From Psammoneis japonica (lineage: Eukaryota): DNA of 46,679 nt. The notes under the pieces were generated by a model that was given only the letters and a program-made list of their open reading frames with translations, did no database searches and was not told where the DNA came from. Within the stretch, counting starts at the first letter, position 1; every line of letters starts with the position of its first letter. Below are positions 11,162 to 46,679 of this stretch, piece after piece. Location of the stretch: the NCBI GenBank assembly GCA_008632985.1, contig QPGO01000159.1:124001-170679 (forward strand), in the 5' to 3' direction. Position numbers and translations under genes: made by a program.

Positions 11162-11215
11162 CTGTAATTACAGTCATTGCCACAGCTTGCTCACTGTGTT
11201 GTCTATTTCATAACA

Positions 11216-11467
11216 ATGCGCAGAGCACTGTTGAAAAGAGAAAAAGCTTATTTACGTGCTCGTGCAGAAACTTTCATTAGAAATCAATCGGAACCTCAGC
11301 ACAATTACACTCGTGAAATTGGTGATTCGGAGCAGCGTTTGTTTGAACTCGAAGCTCGTGTTACTACGCTTGAACTTGTCATTGTTTGGTTATTGATTGT
11401 TCTTGTTGTGTGGATCAATTGGGGGAACATGTTGTTTCATTTGTTGTGTGGACCATTGATTCTTTGA
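11216..11467 (+). CDS. Small upstream ORF (83 aa) in the Gypsy B leader: heptad-like segment plus hydrophobic helix; function unknown
   Basis: ACAATG start; EQRLFELEARVTTLE followed by LVIVWLLIVLVVWINWG. Lies between the PBS position and gag. Confidence 0.4.
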   Translation: MRRALLKREKAYLRARAETFIRNQSEPQHNYTREIGDSEQRLFELEARVTTLELVIVWLLIVLVVWINWGNMLFHLLCGPLIL

Positions 11468-11560
11468 TCACTGAAATTGTTCATCGTCATGCATCAAGAA
11501 GCCTTGGAGAAAGCATGCATTGAGTGTAAAACCAAATTTTTGGATTCTGAATTGTAGGAA

Positions 11561-12750: not shown

Positions 12751-12990
12751 GACTCTGGAGCTGAATGCTCTTAAAGCTGAATGCTCCCAATTGCCTGCAT
12801 GTGAAGCATTTGTTGAAAATGATTGTATTATGCCTGAAAATTTACCTGAAAGTTTTGCTTTTGTTTGTTTTGAAAATCCTAACAAATTGTCGCCTGTTGA
12901 ATTTGAAGATGCTACAGAAAATTACATGAATGAAGAGGGGAACGTATTCAATCAAGATGTGCATTTGAATATAACATTCCTCTCCCCAAA

Positions 12991-15900: not shown

Positions 15901-16330
15901 CTGTGGGTGCTGCTAACCCACCTTTGAACATTCAACAGGCCAAGCAAACAGTGGATGATGCCCTTGCTACAGCCTCCTTTGCATTGCGATGCTCTCATTC
16001 AAGGTCCATGGGTGTTTTGAGTGGAGCCCTAGCATTCCAACGAGATATGATTTTGGATCTACCTGTTCTTTCTGATCTTGCTGCTATTCAAGCCAACCGT
16101 CAAGTGCTTGTCAATGAAAACCTACAATGACAGAACGCAAAGTGCCACTCTTATGATTATTTAGTGGGACAAGGTGTGCTGATCAAGTCCGTGGATCCAG
16201 CAAAGCTAGAAGCTCGAGCTCATGGTCCGTTTCGAATTGTACAAGTCCACGCCAACGGGACAGTTTCGGTGTTGCGAGCACCACACGTTATTGAGCGGAT
16301 TAATGTTCATTGCATGGTGCCGTGTCAGAG
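12991..16330 (+). pseudogene. pol: Gypsy B pol (PR-RT-RNaseH-INT) with stops and frameshifts
   Basis: [78 protein letters not shown]. Start approximate. Confidence 0.93.
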
Positions 16331-16443
16331 TTGAGGGTTTCTTCCCAACGTCTGGGTTCCCTTCTCCATGTGCATTTGGAGTTTAAATTTGAGTCAAGTG
16401 GTTCCAATGGTGCGCGTGATTCTTGCACCATGGATGGGAAGAG

Positions 16444-16630
16444 TGAATGAGATAGGCACATGTGCTCTATGACCGAGTGTGTGCCCTCTCTGATGCATGT
16501 ATGTTAACTAACGTATTAGATATTCAAGAGGCTGTTAGAAGTCAGTTCCGATCAGCGATTGCGCTGATCGGGTCTCTTCTCGGTTCTCTCACAACCTGTT
16601 TTATCAAGTCATCTCAAGCTAGATCTTGCA
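16444..16630 (+). repeat. Gypsy B 3' LTR (187 bp)
   Basis: Direct repeat of 10977-11161, preceded by the PPT. Confidence 0.95.
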
Positions 16631-18233: not shown

Positions 18234-19256
18234 TGTTGATTTTGTCAGAGAAGTTGACAGGATTTGAACAAGATTTTAGTTTATCACACATAATTATGTG
18301 TGCTCTTAGTTCTGCACGCGTCACGAGATGTAGTTTGCTTTCGAGCCACACGGCTCACAAGAATAACAACAGTAGCACCAACATCACGACACCAGTCTTT
18401 CGGCTCCTGTAACGGTCTCTGCACAGAGACTCATCTGCCATTTAGACCGCAGCAAGGAGTTATTGTTTTCTTCCACCCCAGTCATCATCTTCATTTTCTG
18501 TCAGACAAACAGTCTTGCTCATTCTTACCCATTGAGCATTCATCATTGTCATCGAGAAATTTCCAACGACACGCACCGTTGGTGGTGGAAGTATATATCT
18601 ACATTCTTCACTGCTGGATACTGGATTAAATCTATACGTTTGGATTTATCCAACACCTTTCATCGTTGCATATATTTGTTCAACGGATATTTGTTTGGTC
18701 AGGAATTCCCGAATTCTCAGACATCCGAGATCCAACTCTGGCTCTGCTCCACGCACGCCAAGTCTACCACCTCCTATCTACACCGGATTGCTGGTCTTCT
18801 ACAGTCCTACAAGGTCCACGAGGACAACTGTGAGAGGAAGTAGTTCGTGATCACAGGCTACATTGGGGCGAGGGTGCATTTCCCATGTTTGTTCATCCCT
18901 CCACAGTGCCAAATTTGGCCGGCCTGATCAGGTTATCCAACCAATATAAAATAAGAACAGTTCAGAGGTCTTGTCCACCTCTAGAGTTAGCTTGTCAGCA
19001 GAGGTTTTTAACCCGTTACTCCACTCTCAAGCAACCCAAAGCGTCACCAGCTGCGGGTTTGGACGTGCCGGCAGAACTCTGCTGACCGGATAGGAAGCTT
19101 AGCACTTAACTACGAATGGGATGTCATAGCCCGGCGGCTTCTGACTCATAAGATAGTTCAAGACTGCAAGTCAAGATTCAAGTCAAGTTTCAAGTTATTT
19201 CAAGCTCACCCTCAAACTCCAGCTAGCCCCGAGCGACATCCACACCCAGTTGCAAC

Positions 19257-21333
19257 ATGGTTCTCACCAGGCAACAACAAATCGATGGCCACGAGCACAT
19301 CCTAGGCACTGTCCTGAATCAAGCCACAGACAGTCCATTGCGCTCCGCCCTCAACATTGACGGAACCGATTCGCATCAGGACCTTTTCACTTTTACTCCG
19401 ATGCAATTGGATGCCCTTGTGTACAACAACAGCACCAATCAATTGCCTTTGCCACGTGGTTACAAAGCACAGATAGCTGCGCTGATTAGCCTGTACACTG
19501 TAAAAGCACGCGGCAGCGCGGATGTTAGCAACGACCCTCAATTGTTCACACACGAGGAGTTCACCAACTGTTGTCTTAGTCCTGAGTGTGTAGTGTCCCT
19601 CTCCATGGGTACAGCACCATCTGCTCCCACTCATGGCTCGTTGCCACCCAAACCATGTGATCCCATGTGTGACTTTAAATGAGGCATCAAGCGTGACCCA
19701 CTTACCTTCGTGCTTCTCAAGTCTGACAAACAGTGGCACACGTGACACACCTCCATCATTGCACAGGCCCGCTCCCAGGACATCAACCGCATTCTGGATC
19801 CAACGTACAAGCCCTCTACAGCTGAGGACAAGGCCCTGTTTGATGAGCAACAGAAGTACATGTTTGCCGCATTCGAACGTATCTTGCAGAATGACAAAGG
19901 CAAGGCACTTGTTCGTCAACATGTTGGCTCCTCTGATGCTCAAGCAGTGCACCGTGACCTCTCCAAGTATGCCCTTACTTCTGCTTGAGCATCCCTGGAG
20001 TCCTCAACCCTTCTCACGTACCTCACCACTGCTCCCCTCAGTGATGGCACCTGGAAAGGATCCACTCATGCCTTCACACTTCACTGGCAGGACCAGCTCT
20101 GCAAGTGTGAAGCTCTTATCCCAGGTACGGACCATTTCTCTGCTGGCCAGAAACATGTCATGGTTGAGAACGCCATTCATCCTGTTGAAGAACTCTGTTT
20201 GGTAGAGAATCAGGCTGATCAGTTCCGCACGCAGAATGGCAAGGGCCTTTCTTATGAGGAGCACGTTCACCCCCAAGACGGCTCCTTGCACTCCGTGCCG
20301 TGCCATCTACAAACATGACCTGGTCCCCAACGACCCTGACGATGATGTGTCCTTCAACATCAACAGTGATGTTGACGTCATCCAATCTTGTGCTGCGCAG
20401 ACTTGTGGCAACTCCCTCACCAGGGAACAATGGCGTCGCATTCCGCCAGACCATCAGCGGCGCATTTGGGACACCTTGCCCCAGTCCACCAAGGCCATCA
20501 TTCTTGGCTCGCACAACGCCCACACCGGCAACTGCCATGACTTGATGGTGGTCAACCTGCATGACCTTCGTCTTGGCAGTGACGCCAACGTCAACTTGTC
20601 TGCCAATGCCCATGATCTGGCATCGGCCCTCGCACCACCCGACGCTGCCGCCAACACAGCCGATGCTAACCCCATCCTGGCCCATCTCACATGGCGCAAG
20701 CCTTTACCACCCGGTGATTTGCAATGCCTCCTGGCACCTGGACACCCCCCCTCCGCCCCCTCTGGTGAGAAACCTCCCGGATCTCCACCTTCTGTCCACT
20801 CTGACAACAAATCCAACAGATCTGTGTCCTTCCGTACCGCCGACACTGACATTGAGCTTAACGGTCGTAAACACCATCGTGTCAACAACCACAATGTGGT
20901 CTGCTCTGGCTCGACCCACAAGTCAACTCGCAAAGGCACTCTCGTGGATGGTGGTGCAAACGGTGGTGTTGCCGGTGATGATGTTCGTGTCATTGCCTGC
21001 ACTGGTCGCCAGGTTGACGTCGAAGGTGTCGACGATCACCAACTGGTCAACATTCCCATTGTCACTGCCGGTGGTGTCATCCACACACAACGCGGCCCTG
21101 CCATTGCCATCCTTCACCAGTGTGCCTGCAATGGAAAGGGGAAGATGATACACTCTTGCGGCCAGCTCGAGTGGTGCAAACACGACATCAACGATCGGTC
21201 CATCAAGGTCCCCAATGGTCTGCAGCGTGTCACCACCATTGATGGATGTGTCATTCCCATTGACATTAAAGCTGGCCTTCCGTACATCACCACACGCCCG
21301 TACACCGACGCCAAATGGGACAACCTGCCGCAT
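19257..21333 (+). pseudogene. Copia-I gag-protease portion
   Basis: MVLTRQQ..., F(K)*GIKRD, WKGSTH.F..HWQDQL, LVDGGANGGVAGDDVRVI, GLQRVTTIDG.VIPIDIK.GLPYI. Stops and an internal deletion near 20265. Confidence 0.85.
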
Positions 21334-21441
21334 TGCAGCATGCATGCAGACAAAAGGTCATTTTTGTCACGACCTTTGTGACATTTAAACTGTAACACGT
21401 CACCGTGATACATTAACTCTTATAAGTAACTGGATGTTGCA
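21334..21441 (-). repeat. TRIM 3' LTR (108 bp)
   Basis: Direct repeat of 33828-33934, adjacent to the PPT. Confidence 0.92.
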
Positions 21442-21594
21442 CTCCTCCCCATGTATCACGCGACCGATGCGGCTCTTACTAACGTGACACGACACTGAAT
21501 GTGTTTGGTGGAACAGTGTGGGTACGTGCGAAGGAACATACAGAACTTGTGTAGAGTTTTACGCGTTCAACAGTGATCAACGTTGCTGCAGACA

Positions 21595-21648
21595 ACTCCC
21601 ACTCAGGGTTTCGAACCCCTGGCCTTCTGCCTAATAGTTGCCGTACGT
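21595..21648 (-). promoter_or_regulatory. 3' half of a tRNA-like sequence with Pol III B box
   Basis: Minus strand GCAGAAGGCCAGGGGTTCGAAACCCTG. B box GGTTCGAAACC at 21607-21617 sits within a T-arm-like hairpin. Confidence 0.75.
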
Positions 21649-22029
21649 TGCACTATGCTCGAAGAACGAGTGTAAACGAAAGTAGAACGAAGTTCAAAAA
21701 GTGAAAATTATGAGAATTATTTCTACTCGATCATTTTGGGTTTCTCCGAACGGGTTCTCAATAGCCTAAACCTTTTGTACTGCTCCTACAGACAAAAGGC
21801 CTTTCGGAGAATACGATCGTGACAACAGATTGTCCGGATACGATTGATATTGACACATAAGATGTCAACATCATCGTACAGTCGCATTTGCGATTCTCGA
21901 CATCCGATCAACTCTGTGTGATTGATCTGTCCTTCGTACGAACCCACGATTGACGTACGATTGGAATATAAGTTTATTTAATATATTCATATACATATAT
22001 ATATAACGTACATAACAACGCACATTGCA
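21649..22029 (-). repeat. Gypsy A1 3' LTR (381 bp)
   Basis: Direct repeat of 33417-33795. Confidence 0.96.
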
Positions 22030-22055
22030 TTCGCCTCCCTAATTGCACATCAGAG

Positions 22056-25014
22056 TCAGTCGTTAAACGGTATTATCCGACGGATATTGACAGTGTCAAT
22101 GACGTCACCGCGTTTGATCTGTACTGTGCCATTAGTGTTTACCGTTGTTACTACATACGGTCCAACATAGGGCTGTTCTAATTTCTGCGAGTCTTTTTCG
22201 AGTAGTATCTTCTCTCCTACTCTGTTATTTAAAATTTCTTGTTTTCGCTGCTGGATTAATTTCCAGTCTGCAGCATGTTGGACGTTAAATATCATGTCTC
22301 TGTTAAAGACCAATTGTCCAGGTGTAGCTTGCGTAGTATGATACGTAGAACGTACTGCAAATGCTGCTGCTGACAATATTCCAGCGAAGGGATCCTCAGT
22401 ATCCAGCAGTGTGTGTTGCAAATCAAGTGTACGGATCATATTTCCGAGCACTTGATGTACGCGTTCAATAATTGCGTTTGCTTGTGGGTGTGTAGTTATA
22501 GGCTTGACTTTAATGCCATAGTCCTCTTGCACCATGTCTTTGAATTGGTGTCCGATGAACTCACTTCCACGATCATATGTAATTAATGATGGCCAAGGAT
22601 ATCTACTTAACCATGTTCATTCTAGTAATCCAGCTACAGTTATGGATTCCTTATTTGGGATTTCCACAACTTCAAACCATCCGGTTGCTGGATCAATCAT
22701 TGTTAAACATTTCAGGACTAGGGGTTCTTTCTTTCCCTTACGACGTATTTTGTATGGCCCAATAAGGTCCACACATAGTCGTTCCCATGGCACTGATTCT
22801 GCGCACTTAGGAGGTAAATGTCCATATTTCCTGTGTTTCTTTTTGAATTTCTGGCACGTCTCACATCTCGACACGTATTTTCGTATGTCTTCACGTAAGG
22901 TGGACCACCATAAGTGTTGTGAGATTGTCTCTTCTGTTCGATTTATGCCAGGGTGAAGAAGGTACGTATGACACCAATCGATCACTGCCTTTTGTAACGT
23001 CCTTGGAATGACGATTTTATCCTTATGATGTGTGTTTTCTCACAGTGAGTCGGCTGATCGCATCTGCGACAATATTTGCCTTGCCCTCAAGGTATGTTAT
23101 TTTGGGACTGTATTCTTCTATTATTAGATGCCAACGCATGACTCTGTCCAAGGTGAAATTTTTATGTGTGAGATTTTTGTGATCCGTATGTATATTTATC
23201 TGTTGGCCAAACAGCACATTTCGGAACTCCTTTAAGGTCTCCACTATGGACAACAGTTCTTTTTCTGTTGTAGTATAACACGTCTGCGCTCCATTCAGCT
23301 TACGGCTGTAGAAGGCAATTGGGCGGTTTTTCTGCGTAATAACCGCCCCCAATTGAGAATTACTCGCATCAGCATATATCTCAAAGGGTATGTTGAAATT
23401 CGGATAGGACAATAATATATCTTTGGAGATTATGCGCTTCATATTTTCGAAGGCTTTTTGTTCTGTTTCGGTCCATTGCCACTTTACTTGGGTTGAAGTG
23501 AGTTTGGCTAAAGGAGCTAGAACATGAGATCGTCGAGGCCACATGTCTCAATAGTAGTTGATCAGACCGATAAAGCAGAGCAATTCCTTACGAGTCTTAG
23601 GAGTTGCGATCGCGTGAATCGCTTCTACTTTTTTTGGAATCGGACTGATACCGTTACGGGTGATGTGGAAGCCTAGATAGTCTACTTCGGGTTTAGCGAA
23701 AAAGGACTTTTCGGCGTTGACCTTCAATCCGGCTTGTTCTAGGCATAAAAACACCGTCTCAAGCTTCTTGAGGTGGTCTTGAAAATCACCTTTCGTAAGG
23801 CACAACACATCGTCAACATAAGTTCTGACGAACTCTAGACCTGCCATGAGCTCACTCATGTGCTCTTGGAAAATGTCTGGAGCTCCACAGATTCCCATAG
23901 GGAGTCTACAGCACTCACATTTGCCCCAAGGCATAACAATCGTGCACAAACGACGTGCATGCGGCGTCAGCTCGATATGATAGTATCCCATATTCAAATC
24001 TAGGGATGTTGCGTACATGAAACCTTCAAGCTTCTGTAGCATATCCTGAACATTGGGTGGAGGAAGCGGAGTGCGTATTAACCTCTTATTTAGCTCACGA
24101 AAGTCAGATAGGAACCGAACTCGACCATTTTTCTTGGGTTGAATAAAGGTTGGAGCAGCCCATTCAGAACAATTTATTTTTCTTAAGACCTTTAACTTGC
24201 ATAGTCTTTCAACCTCCTTACGAGCAGTCGCCTCCAAGGCTTGTGGTACGGGAAATGGTTTGGCATGATACGGACTCACGCCCGATTTCAACTTTAAATC
24301 CACCGGTTTCCCGGTCCACTTGCCTAGAGAACCATCGAAAAGGTATTCAAATCTTTTTAAGAGGAAGTTTAGTTGTTTCTGCTCTTCAGGAGTTAGATGA
24401 GTAGCTGCTGCTGTCACATTATTGAGGTTTGCGGCGTGAAAGTCTGAGTCAAGGATCCGATTGACCCTGTCATTAAGACTAATCACTGCATGAGATTCCT
24501 CAATATGATCGGCAATCAACTTAAAAACATCGGCATCGAAGAGTGTATCAACATTCTTCATAGGAGTAGTTGCATCTTCCCATTTGATCTCTTCATTCGA
24601 GAAGTCTAACATTATCCCAAGACTCGACATTAAGTCGCGTCCCATGATCATATCATAAGGACTCGAAGAAGAAGAGGAATTATCAACATATGCCATTGTT
24701 TCGATCATCTTATGTTTATCAAATTCGGGTAAGGAGAATTGGGTTTTACATTGACTATCAGTCGTAAAGAGCCCTCCTTTGGTTTCCCAGAGTTTGGTGG
24801 CGGATACTTTGGTTCTGAGTTTCCGCATGAATTTGCGCAAAATTATGGTTGACGATGTTCCGCTATCGAGGAGAACGCGTAGTGGCTTATTTTTCGCTTT
24901 ACCTAAGGAGGTATTCATATAAGCGATGACTGCTGGACTAGCATGAGTTATTTTGGCCCTTTTTCCGGACTTCCTAATATCCAGTAAAGCATAAGACTCC
25001 TCTTGCGGTGCAAG
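22056..25014 (-). pseudogene. pol: Gypsy A1 pol (PR-RT-RNaseH-INT)
   Basis: [43 protein letters not shown]...CETC, CVDLIGP, YDRGSEF, NAIIER, GPY. Two TGA stops (e.g. 23548, CGA in A3) and a ~200-bp deletion near 23035 relative to A3. Confidence 0.95.
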
Positions 25015-25926
25015 TCATTCCTCGGAATCGCTGCGTGTCAATTTTTCAAACTGATAATTCTCCTCGTCAAGGGTGTCAGAGTCACAGTCTTTGCTCTTGC
25101 GCTTCTCATTGTTGTTCGAAGAACTCGCTTTGAGTATTTTTTGAACTGCTTGGACCGCCATAGCATTCAACTCTTCTTTGCGAGCGGCATTATCTTTATC
25201 GCAACGAGACCACGTGCGATTGCCATTTGAACGGCGCCATTTTGGATCGGGTTCATAGTTCCCATGGCGTTCTTTCGCAAGTCTTTTAATCGACCAGCAC
25301 TTGTCTGTGTTATGAGTGGACTTTTCGCATGAAATGCACCACTTATCGGACTGAGATTGTTCGGCACCATGTTGGTGACCATTTTTGGAACCACGTTTGG
25401 AACCATTCTTGGCTTTCGATCCAGCACTGTTGCTGGGATCAGCCTTGGCATGAATGCCGTCAAATATGTCCTCCGCGACCTCTAGGTGCTCCAAAAACTC
25501 AACCAACTCATCATAGGTATGTTTCAAAATTTCGAAACCCTGGACGGTCGACTGACGCTGCCACTTTCGAGGTGCAAGGTTGAAGAGGATGTCCTTGAGC
25601 TCGTCCTCCTCAATCTTCTGATCCTTTCCAAAGGGAGGATAGAACTTGAGATCTTCGTTGACTTCCTGGACCCAGGCAGCAATCTCGAGAACTTTCATCG
25701 ACTCGGGCTTCTTGAGATCGCGACGCAAATAGCGTTTCTGAACCGAAAGTGCGTTCTTGGGAAACACATTCTTCGTGAGATGCTGCAGGCATTTCTCGAA
25801 GCTTCCTTCCGTAGATTTGTCTTCAATGTTCGTCGCCGCATTCTCAAAAGCACGTAGAGCGTCTCCTTGCAGCAACATGCGCATGAGACGGAACTTATCG
25901 ACTTGCTTGCTGACATTCTGGCCCAC

Positions 25927-26096
25927 TGTCTTGTGAAGATATTGTGAGCTTTAGAGGCTTACTACTTCTACGGTCTATGATCTATCCACGTCAGTCACTT
26001 CAGAGGTATCTTCGACATCATCCTACTGAGTCAGCACGAGCTATTCTCTACGAGGTACAGTCTGTCCGTCTGTACGTCGTACGGCTGACCGTGACA
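25927..26096 (-). repeat. Copia-II 3' LTR
   Basis: Direct repeat of 32963-33132. Confidence 0.96.
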
Positions 26097-26321
26097 CTCC
26101 CTCGTGTCGACGAGGGCTCTGTTAAGTAATGTAAGAGAAGCTAAGCCGATGAAGCAATATCTTTACTAAGCCTCTAGAGCATCCCTAGAAAGTGTCTAGG
26201 GTGTGTCTAGGGTTTGTCTCTCCCTCGTGCTTCGAGGAGAAGCGAAATAATGGTGCCATTTGCACAAGTCAAAAATGCTGTTTTTGTCGTATTCTGCAGC
26301 CGCGTTGAACTGCTTACAGGG

Positions 26322-29300
26322 TTACCAACCCATTATCATGCACCTTAAACCTTCGAACTTGGTTCGTCCAAGAGGTTTAGTGAGCAAATCTGCCCAATTG
26401 TAGTTGGTGTCAACTTTTACTACCTTCACAGAACCACGTTTTATGTGGAAACGAAAATGCATCCATTTGATGCTAATGTGCTTGGTTCTAGCTCTGTATT
26501 GCTCGTCAGATGTGGCTAGGACAATGCAGCCGGCATTGTCTTCATGCACGGTGGACGGGGAAAGCTTGTGTGGTGACACACGAGTTTCCAGAGAACCTGA
26601 TTCAATGTGTGAATCTGCTAGTTCAAAATCCATGGTTTTGGACAATTCTTCTAGTATAGTTCTCATAGGTAACAGCTCGCGTAAGCACTGTGATAGTGCA
26701 ATAAGTTCAGCCTCAGTTGAGGAGAGAGCTATTGATGATGTATCCCGATCGGGAGAGATGCGATTCGTGGAGATGGGCAAAATTTCTGTGCCACATTCCC
26801 GCGAAGTCACTATCAACATGTGCATCCACGGAGAATTTCCCTTTTGGCCGGAGCTTAATTCCGTCTGTTGAAGTTGCCAACAGGTAACGTCCAATGTATT
26901 TAACGGCGCGTTCGTGTAATGCCTTTGGGCAATTCGAAAATCTTGCGCACATATGTACTGCCATTGCAATATCTGGGCGAGTCATTTGAGCTAAGAAACT
27001 CATCTTTCCGATGACTGATCGGTACTACAAATTGCAAAACAATTGCGCGATACACGTGCCCGAAGGTCGAATACTGTATCGTTGCCCGAAGCAACATTCT
27101 TCCTTCGCGCAGATGTCCATTCTACATAGTATATGGTATTGAAAATCTCATTGTAGTCGCATGAGTCGTTGCAGTAATTTCATCAATGACCTCTGTGGTA
27201 CTGTGCTACGTGATCTACACAAATCGGACATTCTCGAATGCTGGTATATTTTCTACGGTCTCTACGTGCGCGAAGCTCGAATTTCGCGCCCGAAGCAACA
27301 ATCACCCTTCGGGCACGTGTATCGCGCAATTGTTCAGCAATTCGTAGTAGTTCCACGTTTCTTGACGCTCCTGACCGTTCGAATCAGGATGCAACATTTG
27401 TGCTGCTGGGGTAGCCTTTGTATGGGGCTTATTCTGTAATGGTTCATTGTTGGTTGACCGCAGGCCAAGGTCTATCAATATGGAATCAATAAGGCCAGTC
27501 TAGGTCATTGATATCTCGCCGTTTGCGGTTTGAGTGATATCAACACCTAAGAAAGCGGATACGTCGCCTTCGTCGGTAAGTTGGAACTCGTCTTGTTTGA
27601 GCTCCTGAATGAGCGTTGTGATAATATCATTTGTTGGGGCGAATACGAGGCAATCATCTGTGTATAAGCAGATGAGACAATCATTTCTGATGAATAGACA
27701 TGGGTCTATTTTTGATTTCTTGAATCCTCGGCGTTCTAGGCCTTTGGATAGTTTCTGAAACCAGTTTCGCGCTGCAGTTTTCGTGCCATATAAGTTCTTT
27801 TTGAGCTTGCATACCATATCTGGTATGATATTCCCATTTTCGTCTTTGACCTCCCAGCCTTCTGGGAGTCTCATGTAAACTGGTTCTTCCAGTTCTGCCT
27901 GTGTAAATGCTTGCACATAGTCCACTTGTCTGCTTTTCAGACCAGTAATTGCCGCTAGACACAGTATGAGTCTTACTGTACTCCACGCGACGACGGGGGC
28001 GAATGTGTCCCAATAATCAATACCGTGTTGTTGTTTTGATCCGTCGACGCATATTCTTGCTTTGTATTTTGATAGCTCACCATTTGGTTTTCTTTTTCTT
28101 TTGTAGGACCATATCACGTTCAGTAGGCGGTGGTCTTTTGGAACTTCGGAACGTGGTATATATTCCCATACGTCCATATCAACAAGACCCTGTATTTCAG
28201 GTACTTGTGCTTTTTCGAATTCGGCGCGGTCTGGCGCTTTCTTCATCTGACCTTGGGTCAGGTTATCTGTATTTCCGAGCGCCGCTGCTTCAAATGCTAG
28301 TGGGCTGGATTCGTTCCAAATTCCTTCGTCAAGGAGTATATCATTATCTACAGAACCCATGAGTGCCATCAGGTGGGCTAGTTCTTCATATAGTTCTGCC
28401 GCTACTTCCTGATGGTACAGAGGTATAGTTGTATATGTGGTTGCGTCAGGTAAGTCTGTCGGGTTCGAGTTGTTTTGTACGGTTGTACATGTTGCCTCGT
28501 CGTCTAATCCTTTTCGACGTTTGTATTCTTGAAATTGATGCCGAGCGTGGTCAGCTTCCACATTGAGGCTATTGAGGGCTTCTTGTGTTATCATAGAAGT
28601 TGTAGCATCCTCTGATCCTGCTACAATTGGGCCGGGGGTTTTTGTGTTATCAATGAGTGATGGTGTCGCATTATCGACCGCTGGCGGGCGGTGTGATAAT
28701 GAGCCGGTCCCCTCTGCATTCTCCGATGTAGAACCTGCCGCCACAGGTAGCACAGCCTCGGAGGCAGGGGCTTGTGCTGATTCTGCTGGTGTTGTCGCAT
28801 TTGCTAGCGCAGCTGCTGCGTGGGTCGGTGTCGTGTCCGAGGCACCAGCAGCTGGCAGAATCTCTGCTGATATATTACCAGTATCTGGTTTTTCTTCGCC
28901 GTTGCGGGTACGTTTGCTCCCTCGTGATTTGTGATTCTTTTTCTGCGCCTGTTTGTACGCTTGAGGGTCGATGCCGTGTTCACGGAGCAAGTCGTCCTTA
29001 GTCCAGATATTCTTTTCAAAATAGTATCGATTATGATCGAAGTACTCATCGTGGTGAGTCCAAGTATTACTATAGTCATTGAATAGTTTTTCAAGAGCTG
29101 CCTCTAGTGCGTCAGTGGACGTGTTTCCGGGCGCTACTGTTGTAAAGTTTTCGTCAAAAGTGACGTGAAATTGTGGTGAGACGTGTTTGGTTATGGGGTC
29201 CCATACCAAGTAGACATTGCTGGCATGGTCCAGCGAATGTCCCACGTACACTCCTTGTCGTGACCGTTCGGCCCATCTTCCGATGTGAGTCCCGTCTTGG

Positions 29301-31030
29301 ACACTTTTGTCAGCGATATAGACGGGACATCCTAGACGGGACATCCCACACGCGAAAATCATCCATTTGGAAGGGCGGTTTCTCGTCGGTGAATAGTTCC
29401 CAGGGGTTTTTCTGTTTGCCTTTTCTGATGCACACATTATGAAAGTTGACAGCTTGTCTAATGGCGTATGGCCATAATTCGGTAGTTACTACATCAGACC
29501 AGAGGGACTGAGCGTGTAACAGGTACGTGCGCGCCATCGAGGTGACAACGCCTATGTGCCGTTCGGAGATGCCGTTTTGCCAGTGTGCTCCTACTCCACA
29601 ATAGGAGTTCGGTTGTTTGTTTTCAACGCAGTTTCTATGAACTCTGCAGCGGCGAATATGCCGTTATCGGCATGAATGTGCTCGATTTTGATGTCACATT
29701 TAGCTGCGAATCTCTCGAGCTTGGTTTTGCCGTTCAAAGTCTCTTTTCCTCCAGTAGACTCTTGCATGTGTGGATAGATAAATCTAGAAAAATGATCAAT
29801 CCATAGGGTACAGTGTTTGTACCTGCGAGTGGTTGGTTTGCCACGAGTGGTAGGAAGTAGACCTGGATGGCTCGCGTCGAGTTGGTCCGCCGACACACCT
29901 CGACCTGGAGCATCGTCGTGGCGTTCATCAATTCGATGACCACGTTGCTCAGCTTTGCGCTTTGCTTTAGCATATGCACAAGCTTTGCAGACCGGGGCTT
30001 CGCATTTTTCAAAGCGTTTCGGCACCATGCCGATTTTGGCCCATTCTCGGATTTGTTCGAATCCAATGTGGCCCATGCGATGATGTAGTTTTAACATATC
30101 GCGTTGAATGGGAAGTAGATTGTCTTCTATACCTCCCTCGTGAACTGGTAAGGCTTGTTGAGGCTGGGTAGGCCGGGCCTTTTTGCCGTTCTTATTTTTG
30201 GTTTCATTTTGCTTGTTAGCTTGATTCGGTCTGACCTTTGTGTCGGCCGCCGCCTTTTGCTTTCGTGTTGTGACAGCAAAAGCCGGATACGAAGCCGAAT
30301 ATGCTTTAATATTGGTACGTGATGGTAAAGTGCCATCAGCTCTTACATCAGAGCAAAATGCTTGGCAGTTACCGAAGCCTGGTGCAGTGGTAAGAATCGG
30401 TAGATTTGATTCATGATGACATCGTACTGTCTTGCGATGCTGCCCATAAATCATTGTCATAGAACTGCCACGTATAAAGAACCCATCAGCATCCTGATTG
30501 GGACTTGTGGCTGCCACTTGCTGTGGGCAAAGTAGTCTGACCGGGCAGGCATGGGGACGTATAACACGTTTTCTATATCGATGGTGAAGTTGACACCGGC
30601 GTCGTCCATGAAGGAGCATCTCACCGTGCCAACGCCTTCTATGGCGAGGCCTGAAGCGATACCCTTCAAGTTCAAGTTCTGAACTGGTCTTATATACCCT
30701 ATAAAATCATTCTCATTGTTTGTGATGGTGATAGATGCACCGGAATCGATCACCAAGTGAATTTCATCCGATGTCAGGGTAGGTACCTCGTCTGTGAGGT
30801 ATGCAGCATGTTCTGCTAAAGTGTTTAGTAACTCCTTGTTTTCTTCAGGAGTTCTAGAGTCAATAGTTTCGTATACTTTGACTAGTTGTGGCACATCACG
30901 TTTATCAATGAATGTAGACGTGGAGCGGGGTTTCGCTTGCACGGGGCTACCACGGATGAAATCGTCCGCGGTTCTCGAGAGCTATCTCAAATGCATAAGC
31001 ATTATCAATAATCTCCCCTACTAAACCATG
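26322..31030 (-). pseudogene. pol: Copia-II pol, frameshifted and interrupted by MITE-2
   Basis: VIDSGAS; HHRMGH...CKAC, WIDHFS, ADNG, QNGISER; KYKARICVDG, DYVQAF, LYGTK, LYTDD; VDSDFAG, SSTEAE, EDNAG, WADLLTKPL. Start approximate. Confidence 0.93.
27025..27347. mobile_element. MITE-2 (323 bp, TA TSD)
   Basis: ~42-bp TIRs CTAC(A/G)AATTGC..AACAATTGCGCGATACACGTGCCCGAAGG. TA at 27023-24 and 27348-49. Removal restores the Copia motif TWNYRSVIGKMSFL. Confidence 0.94.
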
Positions 31031-31150
31031 CCGTTGCTGGTGTAGTTTTAGCACAGATGGCGCTAGTTTCATACTTTGCTTTTAGTTTGACCGTTCCAGG
31101 AAAGCACTTGATTAAAACCGGATCTTAAGTATGTGGTGAATTAGGAGCAT

Positions 31151-32930
31151 CTAATTACCGTCTCCCCTCTGTTGCTCAAGAGCAGCAACAGATTTGGAGA
31201 AAGAAAAATTGGCAGTGAGTTTCTGCAACTTATCAATATCAGCCTGAATCTTAGACTGAGCCTTTTGGCGCTTGTGGTCGTAGGCGCTCCTTTTCTGTGC
31301 GCCGCCGCCCTGGTTGGATGTGCGCTTACCGCTCACTGTTGCTGTTTGCAGCGATGTACTCATCATGAGTGTCAGTACTGTGGCGTGTAGAATACATCTT
31401 ACAAGTGTCACACCAATGCCAGGTCTTGTCACCCCATTGTTTTTCCTGAGACTTGTTCTCGGGTTCGAGATACAAGAATGGCGGGGATCCACGACGAGGT
31501 ACACGAGGGCGATCACGCCCATGATGTCCACCACGACCACCGCGACCTGGATTGCTGCGCCTGTTATAACGGCCGTGACGTTCGAATCGTGTCTGCTGGT
31601 GCAGGGTGCTCTGTAAGGCGGTCGCGACCTTGGTCATTTGCTGCGCGAATCCGACTGTCTCTTTCTGACCCGTGATTAGGGCCATGAGTTGAGTGTCGTT
31701 GTCTGAGGGCTTATCCCAGATCTGCTGGGCCACATAAGCGTTCTTGAGGCTGATCGCCTTGTTAAACAGGGTCTCGATTGTCCACGTGACCTGTGTCTTA
31801 CGCATCCATTCTGTCTCATTCTTGGCCATCTCGTCCGCGAAGGGTTTGCAAGGGGCAGTCTTGAATTCTTCAAATGCCTTTTCTACGAGGGTATACTCGA
31901 GCGTACTGTCGCACTGAGTATGCAGGCGTAAGCACTGGCGGAACTTGCTCATGTACTTATCGACATTGCTGTCGCAGTCATTGACCAGAGAGATCTTCAA
32001 CATCTGGGACTGGATGTTGTTGATGTACATCTTAGGCGATGGAAAGAGCTTCTGGTAAGCCAAGAAGAAGTACGTGGAGCCGTCGCGATGGCATGCTTTG
32101 TTCATGTCTGGGGCAATATCCTGACGTAGCTCTTTGTCGAATGACGCGACAAGCAGTTGCTTTAACGCACGTTGAGCGAAGTGCTCGGATGTCTGGTCAT
32201 TGCAGAGCTTACGGACGTTGTCTGGTTCTTCAAGTACCCAGCACTCTAGGGCAAAGGACTCGAAGATCACAAGGGACAGTTGGGGAAAATCTTTAGTTAA
32301 AGACTTGTTAGTGTCACCCACTAGTTTGATTTTGTCCCATGCTGGAGATGTCTCAAGACGTTCCTTGAGACAAAACAAAAAGTCAAAGAATGACTCTGGG
32401 TCTTTAGTGAGTTTGTCCTCTAGCAGTTCAGCTAGCGTCTGGACACGCTTGTCAGCGTACGCACCGGCAGCCTGTTCATTTATCTTCGCGGCAAGGCAGT
32501 CGCGCGCACGCTTAGATAGGTGCTTCCTGGTACGAGTTTTGCGTGGAGTTCCCATGTCGGATGTTTTGGATGAGACACTTTCATCATCAGAAATGTCCAT
32601 TTTGGACACGTCTTTGTCTGACTCGATAGAGTCGTCGACGTCATCAGTTTTACACGCATCAACGGCACGTTCGGTATCCAGGTTTGGTGGATTGACGTCA
32701 TCACGCGACTTCGTCGTCGTGTCGTCGGCTGTTTTGCCAATTGCCTTTTCGGTTTTCCCACCGCGTTTGCGGGGTATGCGCTCTTTGCTTGTCGACTCCT
32801 TGCCACCAGTTGGCGAGGGCGTCGCGACATTGCGCTTCTTCTTCGGTTCAGAAGAGTTCTTGTCCTTTTTGGGCGTGTCAGCCTTGTTGGACTTGGATGG
32901 GGCCATGGTGAGCAGTGAGTGTTGTTGCAA
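31151..32930 (-). CDS. gag: Copia-II gag (534-aa ORF; tail probably continues by a frameshift to 31151)
   Basis: First ORF after the PBS. Basic/acidic N-terminus, helical core, KTWHWCDTC...H...H knuckle. Confidence 0.8.
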
Positions 32931-32962
32931 AAATTGCTGAGGTAACGAAGGGCTTCACAACC

Positions 32963-33132
32963 TGTCTTGTGAAGATATTGTGAGCTTTAGAGGCTTACTA
33001 CTTCTACGGTCTATGATCTATCCACGTCAGTCACTTCAGAGGTATCTTCGACATCATCCTACTGAGTCAGCACGAGCTATTCTCTACGAGGTACAGTCTG
33101 TCCGTCTGTACGTCGTATGGCTGACCCTGACA
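32963..33132 (-). repeat. Copia-II 5' LTR
   Basis: Direct repeat of 25927-26096, adjacent to the PBS. Confidence 0.96.
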
Positions 33133-33416
33133 CCCACTAGAAGTTGATCGTAGCTCTTGAGGAACTCGATGTATTTGGGGACACCCTGTTTCTTGTAGTG
33201 CTCGACATTGATGGTGTAGGTACGACTATCCTTCTTCTCGGGATGAAAACATTGCTCCATCTTGAGATGCTGACTCGGTTTGAGGCTCTTCGGCTCGGAA
33301 TTCGATTCCAACGGTTGCGGAACGATTCTCTCCTGCCGTAACGAAGTTTTGGCATTGGTTACATGAGGTGAAAGCTTCATCTTGAACTTGTTACCTTCTG
33401 TGGTGTGTATACACAA

Positions 33417-33795
33417 TGCACTATGCTCGAAGAACAAGTGTAAACGAAAGTAGAACAAAGTTCAAAAAGTGAAAATTATGAGAATTATTTCTACGCAATC
33501 ATTTTGGGTTTCTCCGAACGGGTTCTCAATAGCCTAAACCTTTTGCACTGCTCCTACAGACAAAAGGCCTTTCCGAGAATACGATCGTGACAACAGATTG
33601 TCCGGATACGATTGACATTGACACATAAGATGTCAACATCATCGTACAGTCGCATTTGCGATTCTCGACATCCGATCAACTCTGTGTGATTGATCTGTCC
33701 TTCGTACGAACCCACGATTGACGTACGATTGGAATATAAGTTTATTTAATATATAGATATACATATATATAACGTACATAACAACGCATATTGCA
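33417..33795 (-). repeat. Gypsy A1 5' LTR
   Basis: Direct repeat of 21649-22029, followed by the palindrome at 33404-33415. Confidence 0.96.
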
Positions 33796-33799
33796 ACGT

Positions 33800-33826
33800 A
33801 TTGAACCACTCCGCTATGAATTCATA
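33800..33826 (-). promoter_or_regulatory. 5' half of a tRNA-like sequence with Pol III A box
   Basis: TAGCGGAGTGG at 33816-33806 fits TRGCNNARYGG. It lies 37 nt upstream of the B box once Gypsy A1 is removed. Confidence 0.72.
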
Positions 33827-33827
33827 A

Positions 33828-33934
33828 TGCAGCATGCATGCAGACAAAAGGACATTTTGTCACGACCTTTGTGACATTTAAACTGTAACACGTCGCCGTG
33901 ACACATTAACTCTTGTGAGTAACTGGACATTGCA
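33828..33934 (-). repeat. TRIM 5' LTR (107 bp)
   Basis: Direct repeat of 21334-21441. Confidence 0.92.
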
Positions 33935-33938
33935 GCAT

Positions 33939-35846: not shown

Positions 35847-36430
35847 ATAAGTTCCGTCTCATGCACATGCTGTTGCAAGGAGATGCTCTACGTGCTTTTG
35901 AGAATGGAGCAACAAGCATTGAAGACGAATCTGAAAAAGGAAGCTTTGAGAAATGCCTGCAGCACCTTACTCTACATGTGTTTCCCAAGAACACACTTCA
36001 GATTCAGAAACGTTATTTGCGTTGCGATCTCAAGAAGCCAGAGTCCATGAAAGTACGCGAAATTGCTGCTTGGGTCCAGGAAGTCAACGAAGACCTCAAG
36101 TTCTATCCTCCCTTTGAGGAGGGTCAGAAGATCAAGGAGGATGAGCTCAAGGACATCCTCTGTAATCTTGCACCTCGAAAGTGGCAGCGTCAGTCGACCG
36201 TCCAAGGTTTCGAAATTTTGAAACATGCCTGCGACGAGTTGGTTGAGTTTCTGGAGCGCCTAGAGGTCGCAGAGGACATGTTTGACAGTGTTCATGTCAA
36301 GGCTGATCCCAGCAGCAGTGCTGGATCAAAAGCCAAGAATGGCTCCAAACGTGGTTCCAAAAATGGTCACCAACATGGTGCCGAAAATTCTCAGTTGGAC
36401 AAGTGGTGCATTCCATGCACAAAATAAATT

Positions 36431-37752
36431 CAGAACAAAACCAAAATTCTATGTTTAAAGTGCTGCTGCGCTTCTGCCCTGCAACTCCGGCAACAAGCTA
36501 ACCCACACCCCCAGCACACCAACAGTGCGGCAGGAATGTATTGCGATTAGCCAAGATGGGCATCACCAACAAATGATGATGCCCACCGGGAACAGTTGGG
36601 AGTGGTGTTGTAGACAGCAACAGCAAATTGATTTAGCACCTTCAAAGCACTAGAAACCACAGCAATAGAACAGCTCTTTGCTTCTGACTGGATCTGATCA
36701 TTCCACTGAAGCAAGCCATGTTGGAACATTCCAAAGTGAGAAGGGATCTGAAACAGAGCAAACACCGTGTGTTTCACAAACAGGGACCAAAACATCACCA
36801 ACCACCGAGTTGGTCTCAAAATCAAACTTCTGGCAGCAGCAACAACAAAAAGGAGTTTCATCACATAGAGCAAAGAACTTAAAAAGGCATTGAGGAAAGG
36901 GGGGGGTCGTTGGAGCTTGGCAGGCACAGATGGAGAGCCGTCGGATGATAGGAAAATAGGCCATCAGAAAATATTTTCGTGACACGTAGAACTTGCACTG
37001 AGTCTTGCGTAGAAACTTGGCAGGAAGCATCAGCAAACAGGCGAAGAGCCAAATCAAGCCAAGTTGATCTCGAATTCACACTTCTGGAAGCAGCAAAGAT
37101 GGAAGGGTATTTGCTGCATAAAGCAGAGAACTTAAAAGGACAGCAGGCAGAGGGGGGGTCTTTGGAGCTTGGCAGGTATGGATAGAGAGCAGTCGAGAGA
37201 TTGGGAGATCGGCCATTTAAAAATATTTCCTTGACACGTAGAACTTGTATGGAAACTTGTGTAGACTTGTCGGCACGCGGAAGGTTGGCCAACACACACT
37301 GAATTGGTCTCTTCTTCAAACTTCTGAAAGGAACAATGACAGGAAGATGTTCACCACATGACATAGGAAACTTGAATAGACAATAGAGAGAAGGGGGGTC
37401 GTTGATACTTGAGAGGTATGGAGAGAGAGCAATCGGTAGTTTGATGAGTCGTCCGTCTGAAATGACTTGCAGAATGCGTAGAATTTGTACTGAGACCTGT
37501 GTAGAAACTTTGCACGCGAGAACAAAAAATGCCGAGCAGAACGTCGAGCAATTAAGCCAAGAGAGCTGGATGCAATTCGTTTTCCACTGCATGAGATTGT
37601 CAATGATCATAGAATGATGGCATGTCGATAAGGAACACGTCTGAACAGGCAGGTAAGAACCGTCATTACACCATCAGAAAAAGGCAACATCTGTGCCAGA
37701 GCTTACGTAGAAAACATGTAGAGGGTGTGGCCGTGAAACAAAGGCAGAATTG
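36431..37752. other. Unassigned 1.3-kb insert containing three diverged ~240-252-bp tandem units
   Basis: Markers GGGGGTC.TTG.A.CTTG..AGG at ~36901, 37153 and 37394, and CGTAGAA.TTG.A at ~36985, 37237 and 37477. Minus-strand ORF 36879-37610 repeats LPSSxDPP. Confidence 0.6.
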
Positions 37753-40137
37753 TAAGAAAAATAAATTGTTCTGAATGGGCAGCTCCAACCTTTATTCAAC
37801 CAAAGAAAAATGGTCGAGTCTGGTTCTTATCCAACTTTCGTGAGCTGAATAAGAGGATAATACGTACGCCGTTTCCTCTGCCCAATGTTCAGGATATGCT
37901 GCAGAAGCTTGAAGGTTTCATGTATGCAACATCCCTTGATTTGAATATGGGACACTATCACATCGAATTAACGCCGCATGCACGTCGTCCATGCACGATT
38001 GTCATGCCTTGGGGCAAACATGAGTGCTGTAGACTCCCCATGGGAATCTGTGGAGCTCCAGATATTTTCCAAGAGCACATGAGTGAGCTCATGGCAGGTC
38101 TGGAGTTCGTCAGGACTTACATTGACGACATCCTGTGCCTTACAAAAGGTGATTTCCAAGACCACCTCAAGAAGCTTGAGATGGTGTTTTTATGCCTTGA
38201 ACAAGCCGGATTGAAGGTCAATGCCAAAAAGTCTTTTTTTGCTAAACCCGAAGTAGACTATCTGGGCTTTCACATCACCCGTAATGGCATCAGTCCCATT
38301 CCAAAAAAAGTAGAAGCGATTCAAGCGATCGCAATCCCTAAAACTTGTAAAGAATTGTGACGCTTTATCGGTCTGATCAACTGCTGTCGAGACATGTGGC
38401 CTCGACGATCTCATGTTCTAGCTCCTTTAGCCAAACTTACTTTTCAGACCAAGTAAAGTGGCAATGGACCGAAACAGAACAAAAAGCAAGCCTTCAAAAA
38501 TGTGAAGCGCATCATCTCTAAAGATGTGCTGTTGTCATACCCACATTTCAACATGCCCTTTGAGACACATGCTGATGCAAGTAATTCTCAATTGGGGGCG
38601 GTTATCACGCAGAATAACCGGACCAATTGCCCTGCCTTTTACAGCTGTAAGCTGAATGGAGCGCAGACGCATTGTGCTACAATGGAAAAAGAACTATTGT
38701 CCACAGTGGAGACATTAAAAGAGTTCCGAAATATGCTGTTTGGCCAACAGATAAACACACACACGGATCACAAAAATCTCACACATGAACATTTCACAAT
38801 GGACAGAGTCATGCATCGGCGTCTAATGACAGAAGAATGCAGTCCCAAAATGACACATCTTGAGGGCAAGGCGAATGTTGTCGCAGATGCGATTAGCTGA
38901 CTTGCTGTTAAAAAAAGGAACCCATGGAAAACCTCAGCACAGAAGAGTCAGCTGAAAAGGTCCTGCCAAAATCCTACAACAATGTCTTTCCGTTAAATTA
39001 CAAAGTTCTTGACACTGAACAAAATCAGGATAAAGACATTCTCTCCAACTTGTCTAACAAGACATTTCATATGAAGACTTTTCATGGAGGTGAGCGAGAC
39101 CGGTTGCTCACATGTCATAAGGATAAAATCGTCGTTCCAAAGACGTTACAAAAGGAAGTGATAGATTGGTGCCATGCGCACCTTCTTCACCCTGGCATAA
39201 ACCAAACAGAAGAAACAATCTAACAACACTTATGGTGGTCTACCTTACATGAAGACATAAGAAAATACGTGTCGACATGTGAGACATGCCAGAAATTCAA
39301 AAAGAAACACAAGATGTACGGACATTTACCTCCTAAGTGCGCAGAATCTGTGCCACGGGAACAACTGTGTGTGGATCTTGTTGGACCATACAAGATACGT
39401 CGTAAGGGAAAGAAGAAACCCCCAGTCCTGAAGTGTGTTTAACAATGATTGATCCAGCAACCGGATGGTTTGAAGTTGTGGAAATTCCAAATAAGGAATC
39501 CATAACTGCAGCTGGACTATTAGAACGGACATGGTTAAGTAGATGTCCTTGGCCATCGTTGATCACTTATGATCGTGGAAGTGAGTTCATCGGACACCAA
39601 TTTAAAGACATGGTGCAAGATGATTATGGCATTAAAGTCAAGCCTATAACTACACAAAATCCACAAGCAAACGCAATTATTGAATGCGCACATCAAGTGC
39701 TGGGAAACATGATCCACACACTTGACTTGCAACATGCACCTCTGGACACTGAGGATCCTTTCGCTGGAACATTGTCAGCAGCAGCATTTGCAGTACGTTC
39801 AACATATCATGCCACTACGCAAGCTACACCTGGACAATTTGTCTTTAACAGAGACGTGACATTTAACTTCCAACACGTCGCAGACTGGAAATTTATCCAG
39901 CAGCGAAAACAAAAAATTATAAATAGAAATAACCCTCGAGAGAATACTCAACGTACTCCTTACACGTACAAAGTAGGAAAAAAGACACTGCTCGAGAAAG
40001 ACTCGCAGAAACTAGAACAGCCCTATGTTGGACCGTATGTAATAACAACGGTGCACACTAATGGCACAGTACAGATCAAACGCGGTGACGTCCTTGACAC
40101 TGTCAATGTCCATTGAATTATTCCATTTAACGACTGA
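37753..40137 (+). pseudogene. pol: Gypsy A3 pol (RT-RNaseH-INT)
   Basis: SEWAAPTF, YIDD, ADAS, CVDLVGP, YDRGSEF, GPY; stops and frameshifts. Confidence 0.93.
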
Positions 40138-40163
40138 CTCTAATGTGCAATTAGGGAGGCGAA

Positions 40164-40538
40164 TGATGCGTTGTTATGTACATTATATATGCACATATAA
40201 AGACATTAAATAAATTTGTGTTTCAATCGTACGTCAATCGTGGGTTCGTACAAAGGACAGATCAATCACACAGAATTGATCGGATGTCGAAAATGGCAAA
40301 TACGATTGTACGATGATGTTGACATCTTATGTGTCAATGTCAATCGTATCCGGACAATCTGTTGTCACGATCTTATTCTCCGAAAGGCCTCTTGTCTGCA
40401 GGAACAGTGCAAATGCTTTAGGCCATTGAGAACCCGTTCGGAGAAACCCAAAATGATTGAGTAGAAATAATTCTCATAATTTTCACTTTTCATACTTGAT
40501 TCTACTTTCATTTATACTCGTTCTTCGAGCATGGTGCA
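40164..40538 (+). repeat. Gypsy A3 3' LTR
   Basis: Reverse complement of the A1 LTR, with a small deletion at its start. Confidence 0.93.
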
Positions 40539-45915: not shown

Positions 45916-46361
45916 TGGGGATACCAGCCTCGTAGTAGAATCGGAGAGCCTCTTTTGCCCTCGCGATCTCGCGTTTTGTGTGCCCTTTTGAGTTTTCTTT
46001 GGCAGTCGGAATCACTGTCCCAGCAACACTACCTGGCCCGCGCTTCTTGCGCTTCGATTGCTTGGATCCTGTCACATTCATGTTTACATGTTGCTCTGCT
46101 TCTTGGAGCTCCTTCACGTAACCTAGGAATCCATTACTTGGGGATGCCAGCCTCGTAGTAGAATCGGAGAGCCTCTTTTGCCCTCGCGATCTCGCGTTTT
46201 GTATGCCCTTTTGAGTTTTCTTTGGCAGTCGGAATCACTGTCCCAGCAACACTACCTGGCCCGCGCTTCTTGCGCTTCGATTGCTTGGATCCTGTCATGT
46301 TCATGTTTACATGTTGCTCTGCTTCTTGGAGCTCCTTCACGTAACCTGGGAATCCATTACT
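45916..46361. repeat. 223-bp tandem duplication inside Copia-III pol
   Basis: 45916-46138 and 46139-46361 differ at 5 positions. Confidence 0.96.
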
Positions 46362-46679
46362 CGGTGTAAACGCGTATAGGCCAATGCTGTTCGCCTTGAA
46401 CACCGCGACTTGCTTCCCCGACTTCTTATCCAGTAAGCGGAATTCATCGGCTACTCGCGTGTCATAGGTCATGTCGTACTTTTTCTTGACGTCTCGTAAA
46501 CTGAGGATGTTTGCAATTGCATTCTTTGTTCCGAGTTTCATGTCACCCCATCCTGGCATGGTACAGTCTTTATCCAGCGTGTCCACTCCTGTGTTCGTTG
46601 ATAGGTCGATCTTGACCTTTGCTGGTCTGATGTTGTGTACGAGATTCCCACTCGCTGCCATGCTAAGGGTGGATCCATT

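Follow-up and report, generated by a model that had tools for sequence, protein, structure and literature searches.

A 12-nt palindrome at the primer-binding position of a gypsy clade and a miniature retrotransposon, and its possible part in tRNA-independent priming

The start of minus-strand synthesis is a defining step of retroelement replication; in most long terminal repeat (LTR) elements it is primed by a host tRNA, with Tf1-type self-priming as the second established solution. Tf1 primes from an 11-nt RNA-RNA duplex (PMC5445492), and self-priming lineages of plants have also been listed (PMC6317226). The RNAs of Ty3 and of retroviruses dimerise via palindromes in hairpin loops (PMC11381356), and RNA-dimerising palindromes are described for Ty1 as well as Ty3 (PMC4974528, PMC11381356). 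For the palindrome found in GalEa Copia elements, its authors state that no described model fits (PMC5445492), and the GalEa work is cited in a paper on bivalve TRIMs (terminal-repeat retrotransposons in miniature) (PMC6934838). The present analysis concerns 46,679 nt of Psammoneis japonica DNA (GenBank assembly GCA_008632985.1, contig QPGO01000159.1, forward-strand positions 124,001–170,679; hereafter the window), in which a Ty3/gypsy element, designated Gypsy A, and a TRIM each carry a perfect 12-nt palindrome in the place of the primer-binding site (PBS). In a search covering open-access full texts and bioRxiv, no description was found of a gypsy clade with a palindrome replacing its primer site, and GalEa Copia was the only comparable case.

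Both elements lie on the minus strand. On the element strand of Gypsy A, the 5' LTR (33417–33795) ends in ...CATAGTGCA and is followed by a single T (33416), the palindrome TGTGTATACACA (33415 down to 33404) and CCACAGAAGG, so that the palindrome occupies the PBS position one base past the LTR end. The TRIM (5' LTR 33828–33934) reads ...GCTGCA, then T (33827), TATGAATTCATA (33826 down to 33815) and GCGGAG, its palindrome being identical to that of Gypsy A at 8 of 12 bases, with two pairs altered on both sides. The Gypsy A family has a second copy, diverged in sequence, with the exact palindrome TGTGTATACACA at 4662–4673 on the minus strand, where the 5' LTR begins at 4675 in plus-strand coordinates, and a third copy, also on the minus strand, with a decayed form at 1298–1309 (TGTGTGTGCACA; TGTGCACACACA on the element strand). 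An earlier, sequence-only reading of the window had placed the three intact palindromes at these positions, one nucleotide inside the 5' LTR in Gypsy A and the TRIM, and had noted the lack of a TGG complementary to tRNA ends; all of this was borne out, no TGG being present within 25 nt past the Gypsy A LTR. The third copy, reported there as mutated, does differ at two positions, but the differences are T-to-C changes on the element strand and an 8-nt palindrome is retained. Gypsy B, a gypsy element on the plus strand, shows a variant placement, as its palindrome ACTGTAATTACAGT (11161–11174) includes the last A of the 5' LTR.

Perfect palindromes of at least 12 nt are not enriched in the window (15, versus 11.35 ± 3.5 in 100 shuffles), and four of the 15 (starting at 33404, 4662, 33815 and 11161) stand at a 5' LTR border. 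The number of palindromes in the window fits chance, but their position does not. The longest one, CACACATAATTATGTGTG (18 nt; 18285–18302), adjoins no identified LTR. A Copia element nested in Gypsy A lacks a palindrome at the PBS position; its 5' LTR is immediately followed by GGTTGTGAAGCCCTTCG (32946–32962, minus strand), a non-palindromic sequence without TGG at which an internal stretch of a tRNA may prime, as happens in copia or Ty5.

The protease-reverse transcriptase (RT) frame of Gypsy A has 1239 relatives in environmental assemblies (E ≤ 0.001) among 8000 candidates scored, the best of them at 63% identity. An alignment of 32 relatives was used to fetch 78 metagenome loci with 47–60% RT identity, and any perfect palindrome was searched for in the 2.6 kb upstream of the RT match and then in whole contigs. 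Of the 46 loci that extend 1200 nt or more beyond the RT match on its upstream side, 44 carry a perfect 12-nt palindrome (14 nt in L037), which lies 1.2–1.8 kb upstream of that match and directly follows ...TAG(T/G)GCA and a single T or C. The two exceptions are L009, which starts inside gag, and L034, a variant whose 12-nt palindrome adjoins a different LTR end with no spacer. With whole contigs considered, the perfect 12-nt palindrome is found at the same offset in 56 of the 78 loci; the other 22 comprise two variants (L034, and L015 with five of six pairs at offset 0 at the very end of its contig), the ambiguous L073 and 19 loci that end before the junction. A scan of a viral collection added four loci (42–51% identity), all four with the palindrome. 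When the 7-mer TAG(G/T)GCA was used as an anchor on both strands (127 occurrences in 63 loci), 48 occurrences had a palindrome with all six pairs at offset 1 and none had a perfect one at offset 0, 2 or 3, the background frequency of perfect 12-mer palindromes in the same loci being 0.00041 per position; the remaining 79 lie at unrelated places, for example in coding sequence or at LTR starts read from the opposite strand. LTR borders were taken from the window, L043 and L058 alone, which have two LTR copies plus flank, because most contigs are circular permutations (one LTR plus interior) with terminal overlaps; in the window, LTR pairs and target duplications set the LTR end independently of the palindrome, and in L043 (LTRs 1–249 and 5122–5368) and L058 (1–309 and 5294–5602) the palindrome likewise begins one base past the LTR end.

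Polypurine tracts of the form (C)ATGGGGGCGA(A/G), with variants, are present in all 38 loci with a located LTR start. In L003, L015 and L023 the G-run of this tract is overlapped by a palindrome (CCATGATCATGG, CCCCATTAATGGGG), a feature that is inconsistent across loci. Terminal overlaps or up to two full tandem units occur in L044 (period 5122 bp, 99.9%), L002, L062 and about 35 further loci; they may reflect LTR collapse in assembly, the alternatives being real tandem arrays or circular forms.

Forty-nine distinct junctions were aligned, in all of which the base between U5 and the palindrome is T or C. Since these rows were selected as perfect palindromes, their 100% pairing, with neither G-U pairs nor mismatches in any of the 49, follows by construction, and it is the variety of pair types that constitutes the evidence. 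There are 23 distinct palindromes, and in the rows all six pairs covary, the central one included: 1:12 (UA 25, AU 24), 2:11 (GC 32, UA 11, AU 6), 3:10 (UA 48, AU 1), 4:9 (GC 25, AU 24), 5:8 (AU 34, UA 13, CG 2) and 6:7 (UA 27, AU 18, CG 3, GC 1). Pairing falls to 34–56% when the partner is slid by one to three columns. On a quick RT tree, close relatives are separated by double changes within the palindrome: the central pair sets L069 apart from L075, two pairs set Gypsy A apart from L002, and further double changes distinguish L048 from L020/L039, L014 from L058/L024/L025 and L012 from L068. Three different central pairs (TA, AT and GC) occur within the tight clade L050 / L066+L038 / L043+L044; the RT branch lengths of these five loci are below 0.07, yet turnover of the palindrome is fast and symmetric, with no intermediates seen. 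The collection of families for compensatory palindromes, which the sequence-only reading had suggested as a check, was thus strongly positive (56 of 78 and 4 of 4 loci, 23 sequences, six covarying pairs, one fixed offset), and palindromy, whose loss across families would have told against that reading, is kept; its argument that selection acts on structure, as sequences differ but symmetry, length and position are conserved, agrees with these data.

Perfect dyad symmetry is typical for the binding sites of dimeric proteins, and a double-stranded DNA site past the LTR for an integrase, host factor or transcription factor would also suit the near-invariance of positions 3 and 10 (T and A in 48 of 49 rows). 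However, the outer and central positions vary among close relatives yet remain complementary, whereas a protein needs no self-complementary spacer; the 23 sequences would demand co-evolving proteins, and the TRIM, which encodes no protein, has a palindrome sequence of its own. A protein-binding DNA site is for these reasons regarded as improbable.

A fold-back within one molecule, in which an RNA cut past the palindrome snaps back and primes its own copying, was one of two priming routes put forward in the sequence-only reading, and some of the palindromes do allow a 4-bp hairpin. The predicted hairpins, however, reach only 0 to −1.8 kcal/mol, and 14 of the 23 palindromes form none, whereas the predicted homodimers range from −7.0 to −20.0 kcal/mol. 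Moreover, the four central bases would form the loop of such a hairpin, yet they are self-complementary in every palindrome (eight different centres), and a cut template would lose the site for the second strand transfer. The fold-back route is therefore considered very improbable, and of the two routes the other, pairing with a second genome, is the better supported. Because a loop needs no self-complementarity and the central four bases always have it, the pattern points to selection on the full 12-bp duplex between two identical molecules, which would be two packaged RNAs, rather than on a hairpin.

The context of the palindrome gives modest support to its being displayed in a predicted 17-nt loop, as dimer initiation sites are. 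In Gypsy A, CAC (33400–33402, minus strand) can pair with GTG at the LTR end (33419–33421), enclosing a 17-nt loop with the palindrome. This 3-bp U5-leader stem, G(U/G)G with C(A/C)C, is paired in 82.3% over the 49 rows, although single-sequence folds vary, and its middle pair covaries (UA 24, GC 10, UG 4, GU 3, other 8). At 90% or more of the 49 junctions, C occupies the second base past the palindrome (33402 in the window), which lies within the closing stem and might also mark the cut site proposed below.

Such a context is also what the main rival explanation draws on, namely that the palindrome is only a dimer initiation site, at which the minus strand is started by a short host RNA, by a protein or de novo. 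Retroviruses and Ty3 usually dimerise through palindromes that stand in hairpin loops (PAL6 in Ty3; PMC11381356), a short stem flanks the present palindrome, and dimerisation needs strict self-complementarity. On the other hand, the known dimer sites are additional to the PBS and do not replace it (PMC5445492), while nothing else stands at the U5 end here, no other conserved or tRNA-like site following U5 in the aligned junctions. The bases beside U5 differ between families, so that a common host primer cannot pair with them. Neither protein-primed nor de novo initiation is known for LTR elements, which also counts against this explanation. A role in dimerisation alone is accordingly judged unlikely, though less so than the DNA site or the fold-back.

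Potential primer partners were sought among tRNAs and within the elements themselves. No site in the 49 aligned junctions opens with TGG, nor does any of the palindromes; ARAGORN found no tRNA gene in the window, and Rfam searches of both junction regions gave three chance-level rows, with nothing relevant or tRNA-like. From the site sequences, a tRNA 3' end appears excluded and any single host RNA implausible. Priming by a host tRNA or an internal tRNA fragment, with the palindromy incidental, could invoke the half-tRNA primer sites of plant Ty1/copia lineages (PMC6317226) and the nested Copia, which likewise lacks TGG at the PBS position. It would nevertheless have to accommodate 23 different sequences at the primer position, none starting with TGG, it leaves the palindromy unexplained, and ARAGORN and Rfam give no tRNA-like match at or near the sites, all of which makes it extremely improbable. 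A stretch of the TRIM interior (21600–21635) with a motif like a T-arm and acceptor end (GGGTTTCGAACCCC...GCCTTCTGCC) was at first taken as a displaced tRNA primer site; this was rejected on account of its distance of about 45 nt to the LTR end and for want of support from ARAGORN or Rfam.

The element's own 5' end is no better as a partner. The best match between the palindromes of the window elements and their own LTRs has only 8 of 12 Watson-Crick pairs, and in 38 LTRs the complement of the site was found at a mean best match of 3.95 mismatches (3.84 in shuffles), none beyond chance; as the LTR contains the 5' region of the transcript, pairing with that end, which would have spoken against tRNA-independent priming through the palindrome, finds no complement. 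Within 90 nt downstream of the site, the complement gave 4.89 mismatches against 4.90 in shuffles (44 loci), and the whole contigs of 53 loci held no further exact copy except assembly repeats (L044, L063), together with 10 scattered near-matches with two mismatches. The palindrome is thus present once per element. Self-priming of the Tf1 type was rejected for lack of a complement in LTR, leader and rest of the element, and a second box of the GalEa type was rejected as well, none being present within 90 nt downstream in the 44 loci.

Taken together, the palindrome may be both the dimer linkage site and the primer-binding site, by self-pairing with a second RNA copy, a reading to which a probability of roughly 0.45 is assigned. 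The LTR end marks the start of minus-strand DNA (give or take the bases trimmed by integrase), so the 3' end of the primer must be paired with the opening bases of the palindrome; as the site varies among families, the element itself should encode the pairing primer; and a site complementary to itself alone requires pairing between two molecules. Two packaged RNAs would pair in the particle via the palindrome, probably in the loop closed by the short U5-leader stem, giving a symmetric 12-bp RNA duplex that would serve as the dimer linkage site. By analogy with Tf1, the element's RNase H would then cut one strand where the duplex ends on its 3' side, and synthesis from the new 3'-OH would run across the spacer base and the U5 and R regions of the partner RNA to give minus-strand strong-stop DNA. 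The 12 nt of RNA primer would later be copied into plus-strand strong-stop DNA, and the same 12 bases would serve in the second strand transfer. No host tRNA would be required, and a non-autonomous TRIM with its own palindrome could share the machinery. Pairing and position are read here from the sequences, while cut and extension are modelled on Tf1. In its broad form, this would be a third way to start reverse transcription, in which packaged genomes prime each other via a 12-bp duplex serving dimer linkage and priming at once, with replication free of host tRNA and tied to co-packaging; so far-reaching a claim is put forward tentatively, as somewhat short of an even chance.

Several points weigh against mutual priming. 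The proposed cut of an RNA-RNA duplex has its sole basis in the analogy with Tf1. The cut must be asymmetric, an added assumption, because cutting both strands would remove the second-transfer site from the minus strand. Some of the duplexes are weak, as for TATAAATTTATA (−7.0 kcal/mol), and the closing stem, short as it is, reaches just 82% pairing. L015 has five of six pairs and offset 0, and the copy at 1298 has decayed. The argument against tRNA was made from the site sequences, and the absence of imperfect intermediates may partly reflect that metagenome contigs favour abundant, recently active copies. The observation itself is real, exact and very general, and tRNA-independent priming by pairing with the second genome would be its best-supported explanation. 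This idea, first raised in the sequence-only reading, is partly supported: it gains from the conservation of the palindrome, the lack of TGG and the lack of a complement in the LTR, while its fold-back variant is disfavoured.

The TRIM bears on the question in its own right. It retains the spacer, the 12-nt palindrome and the flanking stem (CUGC with GCGG), with its own sequence, and its flank is closer to the TATAAATTTATA-GCGC subfamily (L023, L062, L063, L064, L072 and L074) than to Gypsy A. That an element without genes keeps the site marks the palindrome as a cis-acting requirement, and self-pairing would let the TRIM use any related machinery. A large and environmentally widespread gypsy clade, as well as a parasitic TRIM, has exchanged the tRNA site for a self-complementary one on which selection is very strict. 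Should mutual RNA priming be true, dimerisation and priming would merge into one event, the element would be freed from dependence on host tRNA, and each family could have a private 'address' that would limit cross-priming between families. Small RNAs from tRNA 3' ends target tRNA-dependent elements (PMC7472051), and under the same premise the present elements might also evade them. In annotation, an LTR finder whose score includes a tRNA primer site would report these elements as having none.

Three LTR elements are stacked on the minus strand of the window, the TRIM being the outermost, with Gypsy A inserted in it and the Copia inserted in Gypsy A. The TRIM spans 21334–33934, its own length being about 450 bp with an interior of about 240 bp once the Gypsy A insertion is left out. 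Its LTRs (5', 33828–33934, 107 bp; 3', 21334–21441, 108 bp) are 92.6% identical, have TGCA...TGCA ends and are flanked by the target duplication GCAT (33935–33938 and 21330–21333), and the polypurine tract GGGGAGGAG (21442–21450, minus strand) lies immediately inside the 3' LTR. It is assigned to the TRIMs as it is shorter than 1 kb and non-coding, with terminal direct repeats of about 108 bp, a polypurine tract and a target duplication.

Gypsy A extends over 21649–33795. Its 5' LTR (379 bp; TGCA...TAGTGCA) and 3' LTR (21649–22029, 381 bp; TGCA...TGCA) are 96.9% identical and flanked by the target duplication ACGT (33796–33799 and 21645–21648), and the polypurine tract AGGGAGGCGAA (22030–22040, minus strand) adjoins the 3' LTR. 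Open frames and domain matches on the minus strand (22056–25950) cover the C-terminal part of gag, protease-RT, RNase H and integrase, with RVT_1 (E = 1.2e-20), RT_RNaseH_2 (6.6e-30) and Integrase_H2C2 (1.1e-18) in Ty3/gypsy order; this domain order, the LTRs with target duplication and the polypurine tract at the 3' LTR place the element in Ty3/gypsy. The nested Copia (25927–33132, minus strand) has 170-bp LTRs, an RVT_2 domain and the target duplication CCCAC, and splits the gag of Gypsy A. With this nested stretch set aside, the own length of Gypsy A is about 4.9 kb, a correction to the sequence-only reading.

Gypsy B (10977–16630, plus strand) has LTRs at 10977–11161 (5') and 16444–16630 (3'), and its RT is 38% identical to that of Gypsy A. 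A further copy of the Gypsy A family on the plus strand (35847–40538; 87–90% identical) has a 3' LTR at 40166–40538, and neither a 5' LTR nor a palindrome was found upstream of it. An insertion of about 506 bp in the LTR of copy 1 of this family, with 117-bp inverted ends (1371–1486 and 1763–1878; 85% identical), has the appearance of a small terminal-inverted-repeat element. At 7936–8984 and 45916–46364 lie two tandem repeat arrays, whose periods are about 179 bp and about 223 bp.

Compared with the Tf1/sushi type (Tf1, Tf2, Maggy, Skippy and sushi; Tcn1 and TAR in plants), the present gypsy clade shares the lack of a tRNA primer site (PMC5445492, PMC6317226, PMC6934838) and, as proposed here, a primer that is the element's own RNA in a short duplex after U5 (11 bp in Tf1, a presumed 12 bp here) within a U5-leader stem. 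The Tf1 site, however, is non-palindromic and finds its partner in the initial bases of the transcript that contains it, whereas the present site is self-complementary only, and the cut, which is near the RNA 5' end in Tf1, must adjoin the site in the present clade. A TGG start is also absent from the half-tRNA sites at which copia, Ty5, Osser and Bianca are primed (PMC6317226), but these match one conserved internal stretch of a tRNA and are non-palindromic, while the present site is variable and symmetric. Palindromes of the 5' leader also form the dimer initiation sites of retroviruses, Ty1 and Ty3 (e.g., PAL6), which are displayed in a hairpin loop and pair packaged RNAs (PMC11381356, PMC4974528); in contrast to the 12-nt palindrome that replaces the primer site here, they have about 6 nt and are located away from the U5 border, separate from a normal tRNA primer site. 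TRIMs have been described with a tRNA-complementary primer site (PMC6934838), instead of which the TRIM in the window has a palindrome. Closest in form is the 'conserved hairpin site' of GalEa Copia elements, a palindrome at the PBS position with no tRNA complement (PMC5445492), and Gypsy B resembles it further in that its palindrome includes the last A of the LTR. The GalEa elements in question are fungal and belong to the Copia superfamily, their palindrome has 9–10 bp and is nearly fixed (CTGATCAGT or CTAATTAGT in 85% of families), and a second complementary box follows 12–41 bp on and forms a hairpin, whereas the present clade has 12 bp, 23 sequences and no such box within 90 nt. The palindromic boxes of GalEa may be a convergent or a shared case of the arrangement found here.

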